A stretch of DNA of 64,000 bases. Origin: Candidatus Bathyarchaeota archaeon (GTDB lineage: Archaea; Thermoproteota; Bathyarchaeia; Bathyarchaeales; Bathyarchaeaceae). A program made the position numbers and the translations under genes. Shown piece by piece: positions 17,646-57,718 of the stretch; the first letter of the stretch is position 1; every line of letters starts with the position of its first letter. Under the pieces are notes generated by a model. It was not told the origin of the DNA. It saw only the letters and a list, made by a program, of their open reading frames with translations, and did no database searches. The stretch is from positions 888,936 through 952,935 of the forward strand of contig CP070759.1 of assembly GCA_020348945.1 (NCBI GenBank). Reading direction: 5' to 3'.

Positions 17646-17748
17646 AAGTTTTACCTTTACGATTAACTGTTGCTCTGCAGAATTTAGCCTTTCGATACAA
17701 CATAAACGTTTTCGCAGCGTAACCCTTACGCAAAAACATCTGGGTTTG

Positions 17749-35545: not shown

Positions 35546-35884
35546 ATGAGTCGTGTTCCCCTCGTTGACCTTGCAATCAAGTATTTCAGACAGCGAGGCT
35601 ACAAGATAGAGAAGAACACTGTTTTAGAAGGATTTTCCGGGCTCCCACACAGCTTTGACCTCGTTATCCGCAAGGGCAAAGAACGGCAATTAGTCTGGAT
35701 CAGAGACTGGAGACGAACGGTTGGCATCAACATGGTGATAAAAATGGACAAGGCTTCGGCAGATGTTGGTTTTGTAAACCCAGTGATGGTTTCTGGGAAG
35801 TTTAGCGGACACGCCAAGGCATATGCCAACCGCCGAGGCGTCACGTTATTAATGAAACGTCAAATCCTGCGGGGACTAGGATAG
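35546..35884 (+). CDS. hypothetical protein, possible restriction-endonuclease-like fold
   Basis: 112-aa ORF: LAIKYFRQRGYKIEKNTVLEGFSGLPHSFDLVIRKGKERQLVWIRDW. Resembles small archaeal Mrr-cat-like proteins, but the catalytic motif is not clear. Confidence 0.5.
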   Translation: MSRVPLVDLAIKYFRQRGYKIEKNTVLEGFSGLPHSFDLVIRKGKERQLVWIRDWRRTVGINMVIKMDKASADVGFVNPVMVSGKFSGHAKAYANRRGVTLLMKRQILRGLG

Positions 35885-38216: not shown

Positions 38217-38645
38217 TCTGTTAATTGGAGAGGCTAATTACTTTACAGTGTAAAGGCTCTTTTCTTCATGGCTTTAAGAATAGTTTAGCAATGGTTGGTA
38301 CATTTACTACTCTAAGAGAAGAAGACTATCTCAATGAATTTCTCACGTTAAGAATAAGAAAACTTTCGGCAGTCTGCTTCAAAAAGCTAATTTACATACT
38401 TTGATAGGCAAGTAATGTTTTGAGAGAGAGGTGGGAGAGTGAGAGGGTATTGAATCGTTCCTAAACCTCTATAACTGAAGTACTTAGCAGAGGAAAAAAC
38501 ATTAGAAAACTAGTGTCTTTCTTCCAATTTCATATCATGCACGTTGGTCTAAATACAGTAAGCCAAGTTCACGCTTCAAACTCATCTGAACCTAAACAAA
38601 AACTGCAGAGCAGTGCACGTGCAAGGCTGTCTCTTTAAAGAAGTT

Positions 38646-38745
38646 TGGTGCTCCGGCCGGGATTTGAACCCGGGTCGGCGGCTTTCTCTCCAGTGTTGTA
38701 GAGGACGAGAGGCCGCTATACTTGACCGGACTATACTACCGGAGC
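38646..38745 (-). tRNA. tRNA-Glu(CUC) with a 22-nt canonical (37/38) intron; CCA encoded
   Basis: Minus-strand read: GCUCCGG UA GUAU AGUCCGGUCAA GUAU A GCGGC CUCUCG[UCCUCUACAACACUGGAGAGAA]A GCCGC CGAC CCGGG UUCAAAU CCCGG CCGGAGC A CCA. The GCUCCGG acceptor is typical of archaeal tRNA-Glu. Confidence 0.85.
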
Positions 38746-38750
38746 GTATG

Positions 38751-38823
38751 TGGACCGGGCGGGAGTTGAACCCGCGACCTCCGCCGTGCGAGGGCGGCAT
38801 TCATGCCACTGAACTACCGGCCC
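38751..38823 (-). tRNA. tRNA-Ala(CGC)
   Basis: GGGCCGG UA GUUC AGUGGCAU GAAU G CCGCC CUCGCAC GGCGG AGGUC GCGGG UUCAACU CCCGC CCGGUCC A. G3:U70 identity pair present. No encoded CCA. 5 nt upstream of tRNA-Glu on the same strand. Confidence 0.9.
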
Positions 38824-38920
38824 ATTTACGTTTCAAATCATAAGTCTAATTAAACGTTTTTGGATGTTCTAGGTAGGATCTGGTTCTGTTGTTAAAATGC
38901 GGTTCTTTTTGGATTCTAAT

Positions 38921-39036
38921 GATGGTGGGATGTTGGAAGCAATGTTTTTTTCTGATAGTAGTGGTGTGATTGGTGAGGTTGAGAGGGAGTGTAGTTTTGG
39001 GTCCCGTTAGAAAAAATGTTTTGGGGCCCAATTCTC
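38921..39036 (+). repeat. interspersed repeat family, copy A (upstream of the tRNA-Ala/Glu unit)
   Basis: Shares with 57539-57650 a 20-nt identical block (38930-38949 = 57548-57567) and a 41-nt identical core GAGTGTAGTTTTGGGTCCCGTTAGAAAAAATGTTTTGGGGC (38987-39027 = 57596-57636). Confidence 0.85.
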
Positions 39037-39736
39037 TGTGGTTGATGCAGTGTAGTTGGGTCACGTGTACTTCTATCAGTGTTTTCTGGTTGTTGATGTT
39101 TGAAGTTGGATTCTGGAGAGTTTTGAAAATTAAGATGGATTCTATTGAATATTGGACGAGCAGGTTGGAGGGACAGGATTAGGTTTGTGTTGGAAACATT
39201 TTTATAGTGTTTGGTTTATATTAGTTGGTTCTGGTGGTTGGGGAGAAAGATGGTTTCTACCTGTTAGAACCTTATTTTCAGCTCCTTTCACTTTCAAAAA
39301 ATCTCCTCAATCGCCATATCTTGAATATGCAAGGCAACACGATGAACTGGTTTAAAGATTGGGAAAATAGAGACACTGGAAGGCTAACCAGCTATATACC
39401 GAAATGCTTATAACAAGAGGGTTACACTACGTATTTGGTGGTTTAGGAGAGAAGCTAGTTATCATGTGTTGAAATCTTAATCCCTTTCTCCTTTCGCTCT
39501 TTCCTATGCTCTCCTTGACCACCCCCAACATCCACAAACACATTTCCCGACACACAATCACTATTCGTCGGTGTGTAACAAATTCGTTTTTTATTTGTGT
39601 GGGGGGACCTAAAGTTTTAACCCAAACCCAAAAATGCGCGAACACAAGTTTATAAGCAACTCTACAGTAAGCATCCCTTAGAATTAGTATCTTGGGCGAA
39701 AACTAGTTCTTTTAGTGAATAGGAGGTGCAACATGA

Positions 39737-39889
39737 ATGTCTTATGGTAGACCAAGAGAAATGCACGATGCAGTCTGCGCTGAATGTGGACAAAAATGTC
39801 AAGTCCCTTTCAAACCAGACCAAAGCAGACCCATATATTGCCGAGAATGCTACGCAAAAAGAAGACCACCAAGAAGAAATAGATATTAA
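39737..39889 (+). CDS. CxxC-x17-CxxC small protein (50 aa, below ORF-track cutoff)
   Basis: Own translation MSYGRPREMHDAVCAECGQKCQVPFKPDQSRPIYCRECYAKRRPPRRNRY*. AGGAGGTG lies 8 nt upstream. Matches the conserved archaeal/bacterial CxxC_CxxC small-protein pattern. The antisense ORF 39662-39895 in the track is therefore likely spurious. Confidence 0.75.
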   Translation: MSYGRPREMHDAVCAECGQKCQVPFKPDQSRPIYCRECYAKRRPPRRNRY

Positions 39890-39989
39890 GCTCACAAGCT
39901 AACATCTATTCTTAGTACACAATCTTTTTCATATGCACATTTTTTTTGTGTGCCTTAAATTATTAATACAACTTAAAATGGAATGATAC

Positions 39990-40280
39990 ATGAAAGAAGA
40001 GAGTGGTTTAATGGCTATATTCGGATTGGTCGAGTTCATCCTTATTGTTGCTGTTTTGATATTTCTCGGAATCATGTACTGGATGGGAAAAAGAAATTTG
40101 GCAGTTGGGTTTATTTTTCTCATCATTGGGAGTGCCTATTTTCTTTATGTTGGAATAATCTTTTTGTTGAATCTATACGTGAATATTGGCAACGGCGTGA
40201 TATCTCTCTCAGACTTTTCAAACATTCTAACGTTCATACCGTTTCTGGCGGTGAGCTTACTTATGAGAGCTTACTTATGA
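39990..40280 (+). CDS. small membrane protein (3 TM)
   Basis: MKEESGLMAIFGLVEFILIVAVLIFLGIMYW... Hydrophobic helices. Preferred over the overlapping frame 39983-40366. Confidence 0.5.
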   Translation: MKEESGLMAIFGLVEFILIVAVLIFLGIMYWMGKRNLAVGFIFLIIGSAYFLYVGIIFLLNLYVNIGNGVISLSDFSNILTFIPFLAVSLLMRAYL

Positions 40281-40410
40281 CAGGTTTAGGAATCTACGGG
40301 TTGATTAACGCCTACCTAAATTTGCAAACAATTTTCGTCGTTTTTCAAAAAGAACAAATGAAATAGGAGTTTTTCTTTGTCAGCTTCCATAGCGTTTCTC
40401 AACACCATTG

Positions 40411-40743
40411 TTATTTCGCCTCGCGCTTGTCTCTCGACATTGGAAAGACATCTAACATGGCTCTTACCTCACAGCTATCGCTAATCTCCACAAAAGACCT
40501 ACGCGTGTGGTCCTCAAGGACGTCTTTGAGCTGAGCGAAGGCCTCTAGGAAGCGGTGTCCCTTCTCGGTTGTTACATATGTGTCTGAATTGTGCGCAAGC
40601 AGATTACGTGATGTAAGAAGCGTCAAGTAATTTTTAAGTTGTAAATGACTCAAGTTGTTCATGTACATAATGCGCGTCTTTCGTTTGGAGTCCATGCAGA
40701 ACATCAAAATCTGAGCCGTAATCTCGATCCGTTGTCTCTTCAT
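40411..40743 (-). CDS. winged-helix DNA-binding protein
   Basis: ILMFCMDSKRKTRIMYMNNLSHLQLKNYLTLLTSRNLLAHNSDTYVTTEKGHRFLEAF, the typical archaeal wHTH (HTH_45-like) layout. Confidence 0.65.
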   Translation of the reverse strand: MKRQRIEITAQILMFCMDSKRKTRIMYMNNLSHLQLKNYLTLLTSRNLLAHNSDTYVTTEKGHRFLEAFAQLKDVLEDHTRRSFVEISDSCEVRAMLDVFPMSRDKREAK

Positions 40744-40988
40744 CCTAAATCCACCTCTCCGCGCGTTTTCAAAAGGTGTTCATCTGGGTTTTCAATTAGT
40801 GTTCTAATTTGTAATTGTGGACTTTTAACCTTATGTGACTGTGGCACAACAGTCACATACGCTTATTAGCTTATACTTCCTTATCCGTATTTTGCACGCA
40901 ACTAAACATCTAGATGCGTGGGTAGAGAATAGATGCATGGCATGCAAGCCTTTACTAGACGATTAGCAATAATGAAGTTGGAGATAAG

Positions 40989-41249
40989 TTGTCCACGACT
41001 TTTTCTTCTATTCTTACGAAATTTGTCTTATTATTTGAGCCAATATCACCTCGTTTTGTCTCCTTCCTAGTGGGAAGAAAGCTAAAAGAATGGAAGAACA
41101 AGGGGTTGATTGATGGTTATAAAACCAAAACGAAAAGGATTGGGAAGTTTCATTATAAAATTTACCTCGATCTAGATTTAACATCGAAACAAGCAAGTAG
41201 AATACTAAGAGACACGTTGATTCAGGCATTAAAACGTATCAGGAGGTGA
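40989..41249 (+). CDS. hypothetical small basic protein
   Basis: 86-aa ORF with a TTG start, followed by a possible 47-aa ORF (41254-41397, MVEEKKGQAKITIEVEINEALMEIV...) behind AGGAGGTGA. No family recognised. Confidence 0.3.
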   Translation: MSTTFSSILTKFVLLFEPISPRFVSFLVGRKLKEWKNKGLIDGYKTKTKRIGKFHYKIYLDLDLTSKQASRILRDTLIQALKRIRR

Positions 41250-41728
41250 TGTGATGGTTGAAGAGAAGAAGGGACAAGCGAAAATCACTATTGAAGTAGA
41301 GATAAACGAGGCCTTAATGGAAATAGTCAAAGAAGCCATGAAGAATATGCCTCAGATGATGAAGATGCCAGGGATGCCCGGGCAAAAGAAAGAGTAAGAG
41401 TGAATAATGCGGGCCCGAACAGAACCAAATGTTTCCAAGTAACCTGTCCTCGATGCATGCATACATGCCTAATGGACCTCTAGGGACCAAAACAACTGAT
41501 TCCCTAATGCGCGCACGGGAAGTCTTAAATGTTCAATCACAGATTTACATTTTGTTTCAACTATTCTAATCCCACCAAGCGCCTACCACTGCCAATGTTT
41601 GAACGATGGCAAACATGTAGGTAACCTCTTAAGTAAATACTACTTCATTTTTCAATTAGAATTTTTGGGTTTAGCATGCATTCCTACTGGATTTGCTTTA
41701 GACATCTTCTCACCTTCTACTTTGCTAT

Positions 41729-42247
41729 TTTCATTTCAAGTTGCATTAATAATTTAAGGAAAAGAATTACAGGGATATGTAAGGCGATGTTAAGTTGAAA
41801 GAATACGTATGTGTGCAAGTTGGTCATCATAAGAATGTCGGTAAAACAATTGAGGAACACCAAAGGAATGGCTGGCGTCTACACACCTATCAAGCCCAAG
41901 GATCTCCAACCCTTGTCAATCATTACTTACTGTTTGAGAGAGGCGAATGAGTAAGACCGACGCTTCTCAATTTCCCCTCTTTTTTCTATACACGCATTCG
42001 GTTGCATTAATACATATTTATCTTTATTTACTTACGACTTTCTCCCACCCCTATAGAGAAGAAAAAAGAGTAGTAAGCTCTTATGATGAGAATAACACTA
42101 TTTTTGATGGTTATCTATCGGTTTAACCTTACAAATCCTCTCTCTCCATAAAAGGCGAAAAAATCAAAACCTAAACTATTGAAGCCAAGTCATAGCGAAA
42201 CCAAAAGAAGGTTTCTCCTTAAATCTTTAATGCAACTTCAAATGAAA
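41729..42247. repeat. IR-bounded 519-bp element (31-bp imperfect terminal inverted repeats, 28/31 match)
   Basis: TTTCATTTCAAGTTGCATTAATAATTTAAGG (41729-41759) versus the reverse complement of 42217-42247, TTTCATTTGAAGTTGCATTAAAGATTTAAGG. An extra GTTGCATTAATA copy lies near 42003. Confidence 0.75.
41795..41950 (+). CDS. DUF4177-like small protein (51 aa, TTG start)
   Basis: Own translation (L/M)KEYVCVQVGHHKNVGKTIEEHQRNGWRLHTYQAQGSPTLVNHYLLFERGE*. The xEYK-V ... GWRL ... LLFER pattern resembles DUF4177. Confidence 0.4.
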   Translation: MKEYVCVQVGHHKNVGKTIEEHQRNGWRLHTYQAQGSPTLVNHYLLFERGE

Positions 42248-42335
42248 TAATTAACAGATGAAAAGAGAGAGTTGATGATTGAGTATGCCTTGTTTTCTGA
42301 CTTTTGTTTTTGGAACTGTTTGTCTCTAGTTTATG

Positions 42336-42716
42336 CTATTCGATTCCCCATCTTTTGGTGACCTTGACTAGTATGAAGATTACGAAGGTTACGATGGCGA
42401 AGGTTATTAGATGAACTAGGAAGTCTCCTATCCCGAATATTTGCTGAAAGATCTCTATCTGATAGGTTGCTAGATCACCAAGACCTGGTAATGCCAAGCC
42501 AATAACTGGCATCACTAAATCCTTAACTAATGCTTGAACTAGGTTGCCAAGATAAAGAGCCATGATGAAAGCAACAGCGAGACCCATGACCTTATACTTT
42601 GAAAGGAAGTCCAAGAATTCATTCCAGAGTCCTTTTGGTGGCGATGGAGGAGGTTTCGTTTCAAGCAACTCTCTGATTCGCTTTAGCTCTTCCAACATTT
42701 CATCTTCCTTAGACAT
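42336..42716 (-). CDS. mscL: large-conductance mechanosensitive channel MscL-like
   Basis: WNEFLDFLSKYKVMGLAVAFIMALYLGNLVQALVKDLVMPVIG aligns with the E. coli MscL N-terminal helix/TM1 ([41 protein letters not shown]). A second TM and a basic tail follow. Confidence 0.7.
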   Translation of the reverse strand: MSKEDEMLEELKRIRELLETKPPPSPPKGLWNEFLDFLSKYKVMGLAVAFIMALYLGNLVQALVKDLVMPVIGLALPGLGDLATYQIEIFQQIFGIGDFLVHLITFAIVTFVIFILVKVTKRWGIE

Positions 42717-42933
42717 GAACCATCACAATCCCACAGTCATTGAATTTCTGTATAAGTTTTGTGGAATATCAAGCAAGATGAAGTAAACACTACTCCGGTA
42801 CTGCTTAACATTAGACCTGATTGAGCTCTATCATCTCGGTGCTGGCTTCTTTCCCACTAAATGGTACCGACTGACACCGCGGGGGCGTGCCATTATAGAA
42901 TGCTGCAGAGCCGAGGGCCTGAAACTGAGTAGA

Positions 42934-43075
42934 TTTGGGACCCAATAGAAAAAATACTTGACCCAATTCCCGCTACTGACGTAACATAGCTGGATCATAT
43001 AGTGAAAAGGTATGTTGAAAACAGCATTTTTCAGAAAAACAGCTTGCGCTAAAGTGGGGAGAAGGGGAGCTATCT
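42934..43075 (+). repeat. interspersed repeat family, copy L (abuts the stop codon of the pentapeptide-TIR gene)
   Basis: 42934-42973 (TTTGGGACCCAATAGAAAAAATACTTGACCCAATTCCCGC) resembles the 41-nt core of copies A/B. 42991-43075 is a direct repeat of 44652-44737. Confidence 0.8.
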
Positions 43076-44410
43076 CTATGTGCGTTTTAGCCCTCTCAAC
43101 AGCTTGCGGAAAGAGTTGTTATACATTGATTCATCGGTGAAGTCCGCATAGTTTCGTTCCAGAAGGGAGGGTTTCAGATCTCGTTTCCCTCGTTTAACCG
43201 AGAAGCCATTCTCTTTCCATAGGTTGTCCAGAGATATCGGCACCATCTTGTCCGGGTCTTCGTCTATCTGCTCTTCAATCTCCTTTAGAACTCCGTCTCG
43301 CACAAGAGCCTCAGCAGAGCATAGTATAATCATCTTCTCTGCCTCCCGTCTCTTCTCAATGATTTCTCCCCAGACCTTTTTGCCTGGAGTGGCGTCCATA
43401 GAGTAGAGCCAGCAAGATACTCCTCTCTCTTTCAGATCTTTCACCAGCCTCTCTGCAAAGCCTAGGTCTGGCTGTCCATAGCAGACGAAGCAGGTGCAGT
43501 ATTGAACCTCTGCTAGGATTCTTGGCAACGTCTCAAGAAGCTCTTTAGGTATGCCTGAGTTAAGGAAAAAGGTCTTCAGCTCGGACGTGAAGCAGTTTCC
43601 TGACCTCCTAAATGAAATTATTAGCGTGTTGACATCTATGTTGGATGGTCCCTCGTGTTTCACAGTTTCAAGCCCCACACCATGCGCCAGATTACAACCT
43701 CCTAATGTTGTAATACTCATTATTGCGCCCGTAAGGTTGACATTAGAAGCGTCAGATTCTAAGAGTTTGGCGCCTCTAAGGTCGGTATTGGAGAGGTTAG
43801 TCTCTAAGAGCTTGATAGAATCTAAGGTGGCACGTATGAGGCTGGTTCCAGAAAGGTCGGCTTTAGAGAGGTTAGCATCACTAAGGTCAATTCCAAAGAG
43901 ATCGGCCCCAGAACAAATCACCCCAGAAAAGTTGGCACCATAAGCGCTGGCGAAAGAAAGGTCGGCTTTAGAGAGGTTAGCCCCAGAAAGATTAGCTCTA
44001 AAGAGAGTGGACTTTTCGAGGCTGGCCCCGGAAAGATTAGCTTTAGAGAGGTTAGCTTTATGTAGATTGACTTGGACGAGTTCGGCTTCAGAAAGATTGG
44101 CCCCAGAAAAGTCGGCACCATAAGCTTTGGCCATAGAAAAGTTGACTTTAGAGAGATTGGCCCTAGAAAGATTGGCTTCCATGATGTAGGCCCCGACGAG
44201 GTTGGCCCCAGAAAGATTAGCTTTAGAGAGGTTAGCCCCAATAAGATTGGCTCCAAAGAGGTTAGCTGCGGTGAGGTTGGCCCCACTGAGGTCAGCGTCA
44301 GGGAGTTGGGCTTGAAAAAGATCGAGAGTTTGTTCTGGGTGCTTTTGCCTCCACTCTTCAATACAAGCGGCTCCTTTCCGCACTATTGCCACATGCTCTG
44401 GGTTCGCCAT
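43076..44410 (-). CDS. pentapeptide-repeat protein with C-terminal TIR domain
   Basis: About 45 A(D/N)LxX pentapeptide repeats (ANLSGANLSKADLS...). The C-terminal YCTCFVCYGQPDLGFAERLVKDLKERGVSCWLYSMDATPGKKVWGEIIEKRREAEKMIILCSAEALVRDGVLKEIEEQI fits the TIR pattern (F-(I/V)-S-Y ... D ... A ... L ... G ... W ... PG ... I ... S ... S ... E). Confidence 0.85.
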   Translation of the reverse strand: MANPEHVAIVRKGAACIEEWRQKHPEQTLDLFQAQLPDADLSGANLTAANLFGANLIGANLSKANLSGANLVGAYIMEANLSRANLSKVNFSMAKAYGADFSGANLSEAELVQVNLHKANLSKANLSGASLEKSTLFRANLSGANLSKADLSFASAYGANFSGVICSGADLFGIDLSDANLSKADLSGTSLIRATLDSIKLLETNLSNTDLRGAKLLESDASNVNLTGAIMSITTLGGCNLAHGVGLETVKHEGPSNIDVNTLIISFRRSGNCFTSELKTFFLNSGIPKELLETLPRILAEVQYCTCFVCYGQPDLGFAERLVKDLKERGVSCWLYSMDATPGKKVWGEIIEKRREAEKMIILCSAEALVRDGVLKEIEEQIDEDPDKMVPISLDNLWKENGFSVKRGKRDLKPSLLERNYADFTDESMYNNSFRKLLRGLKRT

Positions 44411-44623
44411 ATGAATCACCCATTTTAGAACGTAGCACATTATTAACTCTGTGTGCTATTTATGATTTTATTCATTTTCTCGTGATGCTTGAATGCCTAT
44501 ATGCTTCTTTCTTTCAGAAAAAAGGGAATTGCGGAGGACATCTCCATTTCATAGATCTTCAAGAAGAATCCGTGAAGTTCTAGGTGAATTCTATAAATAG
44601 CAGTTATTTTCTTCGTCTCGAGA

Positions 44624-44737
44624 TTTTGACCCCAGAGTCCTTTGTCATATTTGGATCATATAGCGCAGAGGTATGTTGAAAACAGGTTTTTCTCTGAAAA
44701 ACTGCTTGCGCCAAAAGAGGGGAGAGGGGGCTATATG
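44624..44737 (+). repeat. interspersed repeat family, copy R (upstream of the pentapeptide-TIR gene, downstream of the FAH gene)
   Basis: 44652-44737 aligns with 42991-43075 (hand alignment roughly 80-85% identity with one 2-nt indel). Shared blocks: TGGATCATATAG, GGTATGTTGAAAACAG, GCTTGCGC, GGGGAGA. Confidence 0.8.
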
Positions 44738-44874
44738 CTGTATAGAAAGCGAAGGAGATGACTTGGTGTTAACCTAATTCACGTTCCGCATAGAATGAGT
44801 TGCGTGCCTAGTGGTCATACCAGTATATTTGTCTAAAACACGAGGTTTGCTTCGTTTCCAGTTCAAGTGTCCAC

Positions 44875-45828
44875 TTAATTTTGACTTTCCTTTGCAACCG
44901 CGTTTCTCAGGGTTCCGATTTTCTCAATTTCCACCTCAACCATGTCGCCTGGAGAAAGATATCTGGGATGCGGTTTCATAAAGGCAGCTACGCCTGCAGG
45001 AGTCCCAGTGGCGATGACATCACCTGGTTCCAACGTCATCACACGACTGAGCTGATGAACCACTTCGTACACGCTGAACACCATATTCCGTGTGGAAGAA
45101 TTTTGCCTCACTTCTCCATTTACCCTCGTGCGCATCCACAAGTTGTTTGGGTTTGGAATCTGTTTTGCAAGGGTAATGCACGGTCCCATAGGAGCAAAGG
45201 TGTCAAAGCTCTTCCCCCTCGTCCACTGTTTGTCTCCGAACTGAATGTCCCGGGCAGAAACATCGTTAAACGCCGTATATCCGAAAACATGCTTTTCAAC
45301 ATCCGAGACAGGTATATTTTTGCCTCTCCGCCCCATAACCACAGCTAACTCCGCTTCATAATCCAACTTTTTCACAAAACTCGGATAGACTATGGACTCG
45401 TTAGGACCAACAATAGCCGTTCTGGGTTTCATGAAAATTATAAGGTTTTTAGGTATCTTTGCCCCCGCCTCTTCAGCGTGATCTCGATAGTTCAGACCTA
45501 AACAAATAATCTTAGGAGGAGAAAGAACAGGAGCCAAAAGAGTAACATCACCCACTCTTAACGATGCCTCCCTCCTCACATCTTCTGGCGAAATGCGCAT
45601 CAACTCCTCTGCGGCAGTAGCACCTTCCACTCCAAGCGATATCAATCTCTCCAAGTTCAGTGGAAAAGGATGCCTCAAAACCTTTGAGAGCACTGGTAAA
45701 CCAACAACCTCATCGTTGATTAGGAAACCATAAGATTCGACGCCAGAATGAAGGTAGCGAACCAGCTTCAACTCTCTTGACCTGCCAGCATTATCTCCAA
45801 CAATAGAGACCCTAAGTGAAAAATTCAC
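44875..45828 (-). CDS. fumarylacetoacetate hydrolase (FAH) family protein
   Basis: IICLGLNYRDHAEE, DYEAELAVVMG, GYTAFNDVSARDIQ, TGTPAGV. Alternative TTG start at 45771 gives the typical MKLVRY N-terminus. Confidence 0.9.
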   Translation of the reverse strand: MNFSLRVSIVGDNAGRSRELKLVRYLHSGVESYGFLINDEVVGLPVLSKVLRHPFPLNLERLISLGVEGATAAEELMRISPEDVRREASLRVGDVTLLAPVLSPPKIICLGLNYRDHAEEAGAKIPKNLIIFMKPRTAIVGPNESIVYPSFVKKLDYEAELAVVMGRRGKNIPVSDVEKHVFGYTAFNDVSARDIQFGDKQWTRGKSFDTFAPMGPCITLAKQIPNPNNLWMRTRVNGEVRQNSSTRNMVFSVYEVVHQLSRVMTLEPGDVIATGTPAGVAAFMKPHPRYLSPGDMVEVEIEKIGTLRNAVAKESQN

Positions 45829-57261: not shown

Positions 57262-57468
57262 TGGTCGGGCGGGCAGGAGTTTCATGGAGGTTTTCCTCCA
57301 TTTTGAATTCGCCGAGCTAAAAGCTTGTTTTAAGCTCTCCTGCGACAACCCGGTGTCTGTGCGCTTGATAGGCTGGGTGAGCATCTACCTAGGGTAGGCG
57401 TCTACAGCGTCTCCGTCAGTCACGGTTGTGGCTGGCTCGGAAGCTCTACCAAGCTGAGCTACCGCCCG
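57262..57468 (-). tRNA. tRNA-Tyr(GUA), predicted to carry four introns (about 130 nt in total); CCA encoded
   Basis: Minus strand: perfect acceptor CGGGCGG/CCGCCCG with the C1:G72 pair and A73 (archaeal Tyr identity), D arm GCUC AGCUUGGUA GAGC. Removing plus-strand 57409-57437, 57355-57401, 57308-57338 and 57279-57301 gives CGGGCGGUAGCUCAGCUUGGUAGAGCUUCCGGCUGUAGACCGGGUUGUCGCAGGUUCAAAUCCUGCCCGCCCGA (74 nt). This has a canonical anticodon arm UCCGG-CUGUAGA-CCGGG and T arm GCAGG-UUCAAAU-CCUGC. Confidence 0.75.
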
Positions 57469-57538
57469 TTGCCCGACCAGAATGTTACTGAAGAAAGTTT
57501 CTCATTTATACATTTCGTTGTCTTGTTTGGAGTTTCAT

Positions 57539-57718
57539 GATAGTAGAATGTTGGAAGCAATGTTTTTCTTTGAAAGTAGCGTTGAGATTGAGAAGGAGTG
57601 TAGTTTTGGGTCCCGTTAGAAAAAATGTTTTGGGGCTCAATCCCCGCGAATGACGTAGCCATTGACACGGCACATTTGGACCATATCCCAAACCCAAAAA
57701 CAGATTGTGCGTGCACGC
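57539..57718 (+). repeat. interspersed repeat family, copy B (upstream of tRNA-Tyr)
   Basis: See copy A. Additional blocks are shared with copies L/R (TGACGTA, ATTTGGA(C/T)CATAT, AAAAACAG-TTG-GCG) and with 39621-39640 (CCCAAACCCAAAAA). Confidence 0.85.

Follow-up and report, generated by a model that had tools for sequence, protein, structure and literature searches.

A pentapeptide-repeat protein with a SPARTA-like TIR domain in a Candidatus Bathyarchaeota archaeon: a candidate stand-alone immune effector gene flanked by a dispersed intergenic repeat

We analysed a 64,000-nucleotide stretch of the genome of a Candidatus Bathyarchaeota archaeon (contig CP070759.1, positions 888,936 to 952,935; hereafter the window, numbered from its first letter; GC content 43.5%). 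It carries a minus-strand gene for a pentapeptide-repeat protein with a C-terminal TIR domain (43076–44410, stop codon included). The gene lies between mscL (42336–42716, minus strand) and an FAA-hydrolase-family (FAH) gene (44875–45828, minus strand), beyond which DUF2284 and cupin genes follow. Pfam identified both neighbours as they had been named in an original prediction made from the DNA letters alone. Two direct repeats of a type that we call A_A enclose the TIR gene. A1 (42985–43075, plus strand) adjoins its 3′ end, and A2, a solo copy (44646–44737, plus strand), lies 138 nt past the stop codon of the FAH gene and 235 nt before the start codon of the TIR gene.

The open reading frame (ORF) at the locus spans 43076–44440 on the minus strand. 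The N-terminus MANPEH is kept in an alignment of 46 homologues, which places the true start at position 44410 rather than at the ATG further upstream (44440) and gives a product of 444 residues. The locus of the closest homologue (contig L001) could be aligned by blastn up to this ATG and about 106 nt beyond it. The product was 100% identical to the NCBI protein 'MAG: pentapeptide repeat-containing protein [Candidatus Bathyarchaeota archaeon]'. The 106-nt block shared upstream (44411–44516, minus strand) contains an A/T-rich box, GAAAATGAATAAAATCATAAATAGC, and is probably the 5′ leader of the gene together with its own putative promoter. At the other end, the current stop codon is TAG at 43076–43078, and the ancestral one is TAG at 43070–43072, as in the closest homologue. 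A G-to-T change made the present stop two codons earlier, the window reading ACA TAG AGA TAG and L001 reading ACA GAA AGC TAG. The GC content of the gene (0.48) and its GC3 (0.50) were within one standard deviation of the values for the long ORFs of the window (0.451 ± 0.029 and 0.455 ± 0.052, respectively), and neither measure gave a sign of recent acquisition.

Pfam detected pentapeptide repeats (E = 1e-48) and a TIR_2 domain (E = 1.7e-13; 51.6 bits, the cut-off of the family being 28 bits) in the 444-residue protein. The AlphaFold2 (AF2) model, calculated with the family alignment, had a pLDDT of 94.4, reaching about 98 over the repeat array. It consists of two N-terminal helices, a continuous β-helix up to residue ~245, three helices between residues 260 and 300, and an α/β domain at residues 305–444. 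The fusion of a pentapeptide array to a C-terminal TIR domain in one 444-residue chain, as originally proposed, was thus recovered by Pfam, AF2, and Foldseek.

The pentapeptide region (residues 31–245; 43676–44320, minus strand) contains 43 repeats in an unbroken five-residue register with the consensus L-S-G-A-N; the first estimate of about 45 was close, and the register sets the count slightly lower. AF2 predicted a right-handed quadrilateral β-helix of ~11 coils, and the protein has both the tandem A(D/N)LXX-type repeats and the fold of known pentapeptide proteins. Foldseek with the whole model returned pentapeptide-repeat structures only (HetL, synthetic solenoids, Qnr, MfpA, and AlbG), with E values down to 4e-13, and NCBIfam reported a HetL-like similarity below the cut-off of the model. 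HetL, Qnr, MfpA, and AlbG share the same right-handed quadrilateral β-helix (Foldseek E = 4e-13 to 1e-6), but they are ~180–240 residues long and carry no enzymatic domain, and Qnr and MfpA are acidic DNA mimics that bind gyrase. The helix in the window is longer, is joined to a TIR domain, and is nearly neutral, with a net charge of –3 over 215 residues (family median –2.5). We also considered the β-helix as a DNA-mimic decoy for viral DNA-binding proteins, which this charge does not support. At the DNA level, the array holds internal repeats (family D1), a sign that it has expanded and contracted.

The array is followed by a conserved linker (residues 246–304; 43499–43675, minus strand) with the pattern GLETVxHxGPS...FFLNAGVPKELL..LP.I.AEV.Y, for which the family alignment and AF2 indicated three helices. 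The TIR domain occupies residues 305–444 (43079–43498, minus strand) according to Pfam TIR_2, Foldseek, and a PDB profile search, and it bears a family-specific C-terminal extension that is strongly conserved. The AF2 model of residues 246–444 (pLDDT 88.8) found the TIR-APAZ chain of SPARTA (8qlo_A, E = 7.7e-5) as the top Foldseek match, followed by TLR1, RPS4, L6, SARM1, and RUN1. SPARTA TIR-APAZ chains also ranked first when the profile of the TIR part alone was run against the PDB (E = 1.5e-5 to 7e-4). The TIR-like region therefore withstood the profile searches that might have dissolved it, showing a flavodoxin-like TIR fold together with a profile match.

An alignment of the TIR domain for a catalytic glutamate had been suggested with the original prediction. 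It singled out Glu377 (codon GAG, 43280–43282, minus strand) in the motif RDGVLKE377IEEQ as the candidate catalytic residue, located where the helix following strand C begins and invariant in 46/46 aligned homologues. In the PDB profile search, RDGVLKEIEEQ aligned on '...RDGVLKEI...' and '...REGVLKEL...' of SPARTA chains. Counting along the MapSPARTA chain in this alignment, the Glu matching E377 is residue 77. The E77A mutation abolishes the NADase activity of SPARTA (Koopal et al., PMC9097488), the TIR domain of which is an NADase switched on by oligomerization after target recognition (PMC9097488). From its sequence, the TIR domain is a plausible candidate for a catalytically competent enzyme, having the glutamate in place and being closest to the NADase TIR of SPARTA.

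To place the protein in a family, residues 246–444 were compared with 1.84 billion cluster representatives, yielding 114 clusters at E ≤ 1e-30 and 759 at E ≤ 1e-10. Most of the matched proteins were 300–450 residues long, with the linker/TIR module at the C-terminus. This module was 55–86% identical to that of the window protein in the homologues, and the array spanned 110–245 residues, corresponding to 22–49 repeats. In one 518-residue protein (P0017), two copies of the conserved TIR module frame the pentapeptide array, one N-terminal and one C-terminal. The same TIR subtype (45–56% identity over the TIR core) was also found on Schlafen AlbA_2 (P0186 and P0207), joined to the reverse transcriptase domain RVT_1 (P0206), on a glycoside-hydrolase-like propeller (P0187), and on N-terminal regions of ~530 residues that received no assignment (P0213, P0234, P0236, and P0239). 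Fusion of the TIR domain to varied N-terminal partners is the usual pattern, that of a shared effector with swapped sensors. The RVT_1 and AlbA_2 cases carry the subtype into the conflict fusions of the reverse transcriptase–TIR, Schlafen–TIR, and STAND/TPR–TIR kinds; the window protein has no NTPase switch domain. Pentapeptide repeats and TIR have been named among the interchangeable modules of conflict systems (PMC7159879; PMC10853773), and the pentapeptide–TIR fusion itself was not described in the literature that we searched.

The genes around the family members differed from locus to locus. In the window, the query protein (P0001) is encoded between the FAA hydrolase and MscL genes. Its closest homologue (P0002 in L001, 72% identity) has a glyoxalase and an EVE-domain gene upstream. 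For P0014 (L002/L003), the setting is the end of an island that carries integrase and HNH genes, flanked by SMC and proteasome genes, and for P0065 (L077–L079) it is the end of an island with integrase and DpnII/MboI-like genes. P0008 (L004) follows PhoU and is overlapped by a gene for an unassigned 397-residue protein, P0095 (L080) lies between argH and rpe at a locus that also holds RecG, DegV, and FakA genes, and P0106 (L082) is found near a Dcm methylase and Vsr. These seven contexts, the window and six homologue loci, had no neighbour in common. The C-terminal module was 61–63% identical between the window and L077, L080, and L082; judged by the neighbouring genes, the L077 locus is archaeal and the L080 locus bacterial. 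An identity of this size across domains is far above the expectation for vertical descent, which argues for transfer between Archaea and Bacteria. The family looks horizontally mobile, given seven unrelated contexts in both domains and two positions at the edges of integrase islands, and in this respect the mobility first suspected for the gene found support. No relatives of the C-terminal module were found on IMG/VR viral contigs, and a fold search of BFVD gave only a generic TIR/WD40 protein of a giant virus.

Two of these loci showed further features. In L004 (9825–11018), the stop codon of the TIR gene overlaps the start of the gene for the 397-residue protein, a possible operon partner that was not seen in the other six contexts. 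In L002 (11193–17998) and L077 (9300–16026), the homologue stands at the far end of a 6–7-kb island that ends in a tyrosine integrase and contains HNH or DpnII/MboI-like genes and many ORFs with no Pfam match. Their content suggests integrated elements, or else defence islands, of other Bathyarchaeia-like genomes.

Comparison with described immune systems set the protein apart from each of them. The SPARTA TIR (PDB 8qlo and 8fex) is its best match by fold and profile, with the motif R-[DE]-G-V-L-K-E common to both around Glu77/E377, at an identity of about 20–25%. Unlike SPARTA, in which a TIR-APAZ protein is encoded next to a short Argonaute, the window protein has neither APAZ nor an Argonaute partner; its non-TIR part is the pentapeptide array, a β-helix that would act as the sensor within the same polypeptide. 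ThsB of Thoeris and the stand-alone bacterial TIR_2 proteins are likewise accessory genes of the same Pfam family with a catalytic Glu. In contrast to ThsB, the TIR domain of the window protein is fused to a large repeat domain, and no ThsA effector was found by PADLOC or Pfam between 28 and 60 kb of the window or at the six other homologue loci. No cyclase of the CBASS or Pycsar kind was found nearby, nor does the protein have a SAVED, STING, or CAP-type domain.

The repeats around the gene were compared by blastn against the 64-kb window. Positions 42985–43067 matched 44646–44730 with 83.5% identity over 85 nt (E = 5e-19), and the gapped alignment of A1 and A2 gave 76/91 identities (84%). 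The claim of direct repeats of ~85 bp at 80–85% identity on both sides of the gene was therefore accurate, as was the placing of the lower copy against the stop codon: A1 begins at the ancestral TAG (43070–43072) and adjoins the present one. The conserved features of A are TTTGGA, ATGTTGRAA, and an A/T palindrome. The palindrome, of the T5/A5 type, is present in both A1 and A2; its stem consists of A and U only, and a T4–T5 run occurs on both strands. Folding of the predicted RNA gave z values of –0.9 for A1 and –2.5 for A2, and the four A copies of the window, taken on both strands, had values between –2.5 and +1.4 and shared no structure. Intrinsic terminators have a stable, G+C-rich hairpin ahead of a T run, and no such hairpin was seen. 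Of the hairpin plus T-run ascribed earlier to each copy, the T-run palindrome was retained and the hairpin was weak and inconsistently predicted; a terminator role is accordingly plausible through the T runs and not through the hairpin. Rfam gave nothing at the repeat locus at the gathering threshold or at E ≤ 5. Three other assignments were discarded. The A module showed no consistent fold or stability across copies, which speaks against an RNA gene. The tRNA-type copies do not fit a C/D-box RNA, the box spacing being too short and the boxes not being conserved in A1 and A2. Finally, indels between A1 and A2 shift the frame of a small ORF (ATGTTGAAA...).

A1 turned out to be one module of a longer element. 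Alignment of window 42860–43080 with positions 60–320 of L084, a 169-kb metagenome contig with 45% GC, showed the repeat sequence that follows the TIR gene to be one copy of a mosaic element of ~230 bp, A_T–B–A_A. At this locus, it comprises an A_T remnant with an internal deletion (42885–42925, plus strand), defined by this alignment and weak on its own, module B (42926–42975, plus strand), and A1. Module B, TTTGGGACCCAATAGAAAAAATACTTGACCCAATT, contains the palindrome TTGGGNCCCAA and an A6 run; it was delimited with blastn and nhmmer, the former matching it to 57600–57657 (E = 5.5e-6) and 38991–39034 (E = 8e-4). In L084, A_T (78–153), B (152–199), a spacer, and A_A (223–307) are contiguous at the end of the contig and are followed by a TatD-like gene on the same strand. 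This was the one true relative in a metagenome scan with the B pattern; two other matches were due to chance, lying inside AT-rich coding DNA. The L084 contig ends exactly at the composite (1–310), as would be expected if the element is multi-copy and breaks the assembly there.

Two further composites are present in the window, with the same mosaic order and a truncation in A_A. The second (38904–39038, plus strand) consists of A_T at 38904–38990 and B at 38986–39038 and lies upstream of two minus-strand tRNA genes, tRNA-Ala(CGC) and one that probably contains an intron. The third (57521–57649, plus strand) consists of A_T at 57521–57600, B at 57595–57649, and the first ~20 nt of A_A, upstream of a putative, unclassified structured RNA on the minus strand. 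Profile searches of the 64-kb window returned four A copies (42985–43069, 44646–44731, 38905–38989, and 57522–57599) and three B copies (42926–42975, 38986–39038, and 57595–57649), all on the plus strand. L001 has an A_A copy in the spacer that separates the glyoxalase gene from the EVE gene, no more than 650 nt upstream of the closest homologue. This copy is on the same strand as the TIR gene, an orientation opposite to that in the window. Pairwise identities were 84% for A1–A2, 80% for A2–L084b, 76% for A1–L084b, 75–79% for A–L001, and 81% for T1–T2. The A_T profile matched A2 (44646–44737) at E = 0.016, and the A_A profile did not find the A_T copies in the window, so that A_A and A_T are marginally related. 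The flanking repeats had been assigned to the same family as repeats upstream of tRNA loci. This kinship holds through the composite and module B and is marginal for the A modules themselves, and recognizable tRNAs are found at one of the two loci, at 38.9 kb and not at 57.5 kb.

The REP/BIME intergenic repeats are short, non-coding, modular, dispersed, palindromic, and lineage-restricted, and they often lie at the 3′ ends of genes. By analogy, A_T–B–A_A resembles BIME in being a short, non-coding, modular, dispersed, palindromic, and lineage-restricted intergenic element that often lies at gene 3′ ends. It differs in being archaeal, in having no sequence relationship to BIME, and in the single orientation of all four window copies. 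Taken together, the repeats are probably a mundane, dispersed, lineage-specific mosaic intergenic element, as yet uncharacterized. Archaeal RNA polymerase terminates at oligo-T runs that need no hairpin. Since T runs occur on both strands, a bidirectional stop or punctuation mark would be the most economical role of the element, with protein binding as an alternative for B.

Between 28 and 60 kb of the window, PADLOC and Pfam found no integrase, transposase, Argonaute, cyclase, SIR2/ThsA, or other catalogued defence gene, in accordance with the earlier remark that no ThsA-like, cyclase, or other recognized partner is adjacent. With one exception, the recognizable genes of this region have housekeeping functions; they encode a phosphoglucomutase, a radical SAM protein, an Obg-like GTPase, undecaprenyl-diphosphate synthase, a nucleoside phosphorylase, an ATP-grasp protein, a large subtilase, and GH113. 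The exception lies ~7 kb away from the TIR gene, at 35546–35884 (plus strand), and is the one other gene seen there with a flavour of defence: a 112-residue ORF that matches the restriction-endonuclease-like domain Mrr_cat (E = 2.6e-6). Convincing ORFs are very scarce in the ~4 kb that surround the tRNAs and follow mscL (38220–42330); an HTH_45 gene (40411–40743) and small unassigned ORFs lie in this stretch. The gene beside tRNA-Ala(CGC) (38646–38745, minus strand) is 100 nt long and tRNA-like (Rfam tRNA, 51.6 bits), with an odd four-base anticodon according to ARAGORN, and is probably an intron-containing archaeal tRNA. At 57262–57478 (minus strand), just downstream of the third composite and a TATA-like box, ~215 nt begin like a tRNA, GGGCGGTAGCTCAGCTTGGTAGAGC, end with ...GCCCGACCACCA, and fold into a long closed structure (–87.8 kcal/mol, z = –4.4). 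ARAGORN did not recognize this segment and Rfam gave no match to it at the gathering threshold or at E ≤ 5. It may be a tRNA broken up by extensive intron sequence, or else a structured RNA outside the known classes.

With the above results in hand, the original view of the TIR protein as a candidate for defence is reasonable and has gained strength. We lean, with a little better than even confidence, towards a stand-alone immune effector candidate whose flanking repeats are a dispersed element outside the gene unit. The protein would combine an N-terminal helical cap, a 43-repeat β-helix of ~11 coils, a three-helix linker, and a SPARTA-like TIR domain with E377. The β-helix, variable in length, may provide a surface for sensing or assembly. 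An invader-derived ligand would engage this surface and bring TIR domains together, and the TIR–TIR assembly would complete the active site, so that NAD+ is hydrolysed and the infected cell is arrested. By comparison with its SPARTA relatives, the TIR domain would be an NAD+ hydrolase that needs assembly, with NAD+ depletion and arrest as the outcome, and the role of a single-protein, NAD+-depleting defence system is plausible but unproven. The gene and its ~106-nt upstream region would move between genomes as a 'promoter plus ORF' unit. A1 and A2 would lie outside this unit, as A_A modules of the ~230-bp intergenic mosaic that happen to occur on both sides of the gene in this genome; with T5 runs on both strands, the element is probably a transcription stop or a protein-binding site.

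Several observations weigh against this reading. The TIR gene stands here among housekeeping genes and not in a defence island. It does not belong to a catalogued defence system: PADLOC has no model for the protein and gave weak Aga_TIR (Argonaute-associated) matches to the TIR part only (E = 5e-5). Both the NADase activity and the immune phenotype are suggested by homology. The β-helix is linked to the DNA-mimic mechanism of MfpA and Qnr by a match between predicted and solved folds, and it would be a nearly neutral mimic. The very high conservation of the linker and the TIR domain is not what one usually sees in immune genes, which evolve fast, and may stem from a different, conserved role in the cell. 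On the side of the repeats, the 64 kb contain just two A_A copies, and these occupy neighbouring intergenic spacers, which by a rough estimate has a probability of 2/59 (~0.03) if the placement is random, and local duplication or recombination tied to the gene is possible.

A wider version of the immune reading treats pentapeptide–TIR proteins as an unrecognized immune system that consists of a single protein and is widespread among uncultivated Archaea (Bathyarchaeia) and Bacteria (e.g., Dehalococcoidia), with more than 100 clusters at 50% identity. The helix would serve as a decoy or filament-scaffold sensor that switches on the SPARTA-type TIR, and the gene may have been shuffled at the mosaic repeats in this lineage. 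We hold this extension as tentative and rather doubtful.

Of the alternatives, a non-immune housekeeping or regulatory protein survives best, and we regard it as unlikely. Here, the helix would bind a cellular partner, and the TIR domain would be an NAD-linked regulator or a pure assembly domain. The pentapeptide proteins with known roles are topoisomerase regulators, MfpA and Qnr binding gyrase, and the fold match to these proteins agrees with such a function. So do the housekeeping neighbours here and in L080 (argH and rpe), the strong conservation of the C-terminal module across domains, the lack of a PADLOC match above noise, and the lack of relatives on viral contigs. It is harder to reconcile with the patchy distribution of the family and its non-conserved contexts, among them integrase islands and restriction–modification or EVE neighbours, or with the occurrence of its TIR subtype on reverse transcriptase and Schlafen domains. 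Furthermore, the repeat number is highly variable, and the catalytic Glu, needless in a pure scaffold, is invariant.

The original prediction had taken the repeats as the marks of a mobile or recombination-acquired cassette. In such a model, which we consider quite improbable, a resident A element was the site at which a 1.66-kb unit, made up of the gene and a single A copy, recombined into the genome; Campbell-type integration of a circular intermediate or integron-like cassette capture could have done this and would leave direct A repeats on both sides. In its favour, the direct repeats are real and their match is highly significant, the window has no A_A copies besides the two that flank the TIR gene, A1 starts exactly at the ancestral stop codon, another A_A copy lies close upstream of the L001 homologue, and the gene family is clearly mobile. 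The bracketing nevertheless lost its force as the element proved to be dispersed. A/B-family copies stand at loci with no TIR gene, namely at tRNA-Ala, the structured RNA, glyoxalase/EVE, and TatD-like genes, in either orientation to their neighbours; copies in other genomes adjoin unrelated genes, and the orientation relative to the TIR gene is reversed in L001. Judged by sequence identity, A1 and A2 are hardly closer to each other (84%) than A2 is to the copy of another genome (80%).

The boundaries of the conserved DNA pointed in the same direction. The block shared with the closest homologue (window 44516–43070 and L001 1327–2775, 79.9% over 1449 nt by blastn) consists of the 106 nt upstream and the ORF. 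It touches A1 and stops 130 nt short of A2, leaving 130 nt of unshared sequence between A2 and the conserved gene block. The repeats are direct, and by eye the ends of A share no inverted similarity; neither a recombinase or transposase nearby nor terminal inverted repeats, as in a transposon or miniature inverted-repeat element, were found, and no tyrosine recombinase was seen in 28–60 kb. As for an integron cassette, the A copies have GTTGAAA, which lacks the Y of the attC-like core GTTRRRY, and no inverse core was seen by eye; there are two copies only, and no formal attC model was applied. Finally, the gene has no compositional anomaly.

Comparison with relatives on both sides of the locus provided no empty site with a single repeat copy, in 3 FAH-side or 8 mscL-side relatives; synteny was broken on both sides, and no conspecific was among them. 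The FAH-side relatives were L005 (87% amino acid identity) and L006/L019 (84–86%, one metagenome-assembled genome), at 82–84% nucleotide identity. Their DNA homology ends at window ~44846–44866, just past the FAH stop codon, and unrelated genes follow. The eight loci with mscL orthologues (75–87% amino acid identity) have other neighbours, no A/B module, and no TIR gene, and their homology ends ~15 nt upstream of the mscL start. As homology ends at either flank, the 2.1 kb that separate mscL from FAH are lineage-specific. In L006 (10001–10906) and L019 (1–10443), both of metagenome-assembled genome CAYFTS01, FAH and ~4 kb of unrelated genes lie between homologues of the genes at 17684–15951 and 15937–9883, which are contiguous in the window; the FAH region itself has thus been relocated between related genomes. 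Both contigs break inside or just after FAH.

A Thoeris-like signalling TIR, making a cyclic-ADPR-type or related signal from NAD+ for an effector encoded elsewhere in the genome, is highly unlikely: TIR enzymes either deplete NAD+ or make signals, and TIR_2 is the Pfam family of ThsB with the catalytic Glu in place, but none of the seven contexts has a ThsA-type (SIR2/SLOG or Macro) neighbour, the closest solved relatives are the NAD+-depleting SPARTA TIRs, and mobile defence genes do not typically have an effector encoded at a distance.

The locus would be ordinary if the protein were inactive or the repeats plain terminators. The mosaic repeat is a separate and modest lead on intergenic organization in Bathyarchaeia. 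Bacteria, plants, and animals have TIR domains in common as the enzymatic core of immunity, and the systems built on them differ in how infection is sensed. The protein in the window is a candidate TIR effector with a putative sensor of a type not described for TIR in the literature searched. If the immune reading is true, a β-helix wired to a SPARTA-like TIR would be a new sensor type, it would give an immunity role to the large and mostly function-less pentapeptide-repeat superfamily, and it would bear on archaeal lineages with an almost unexplored defence repertoire.

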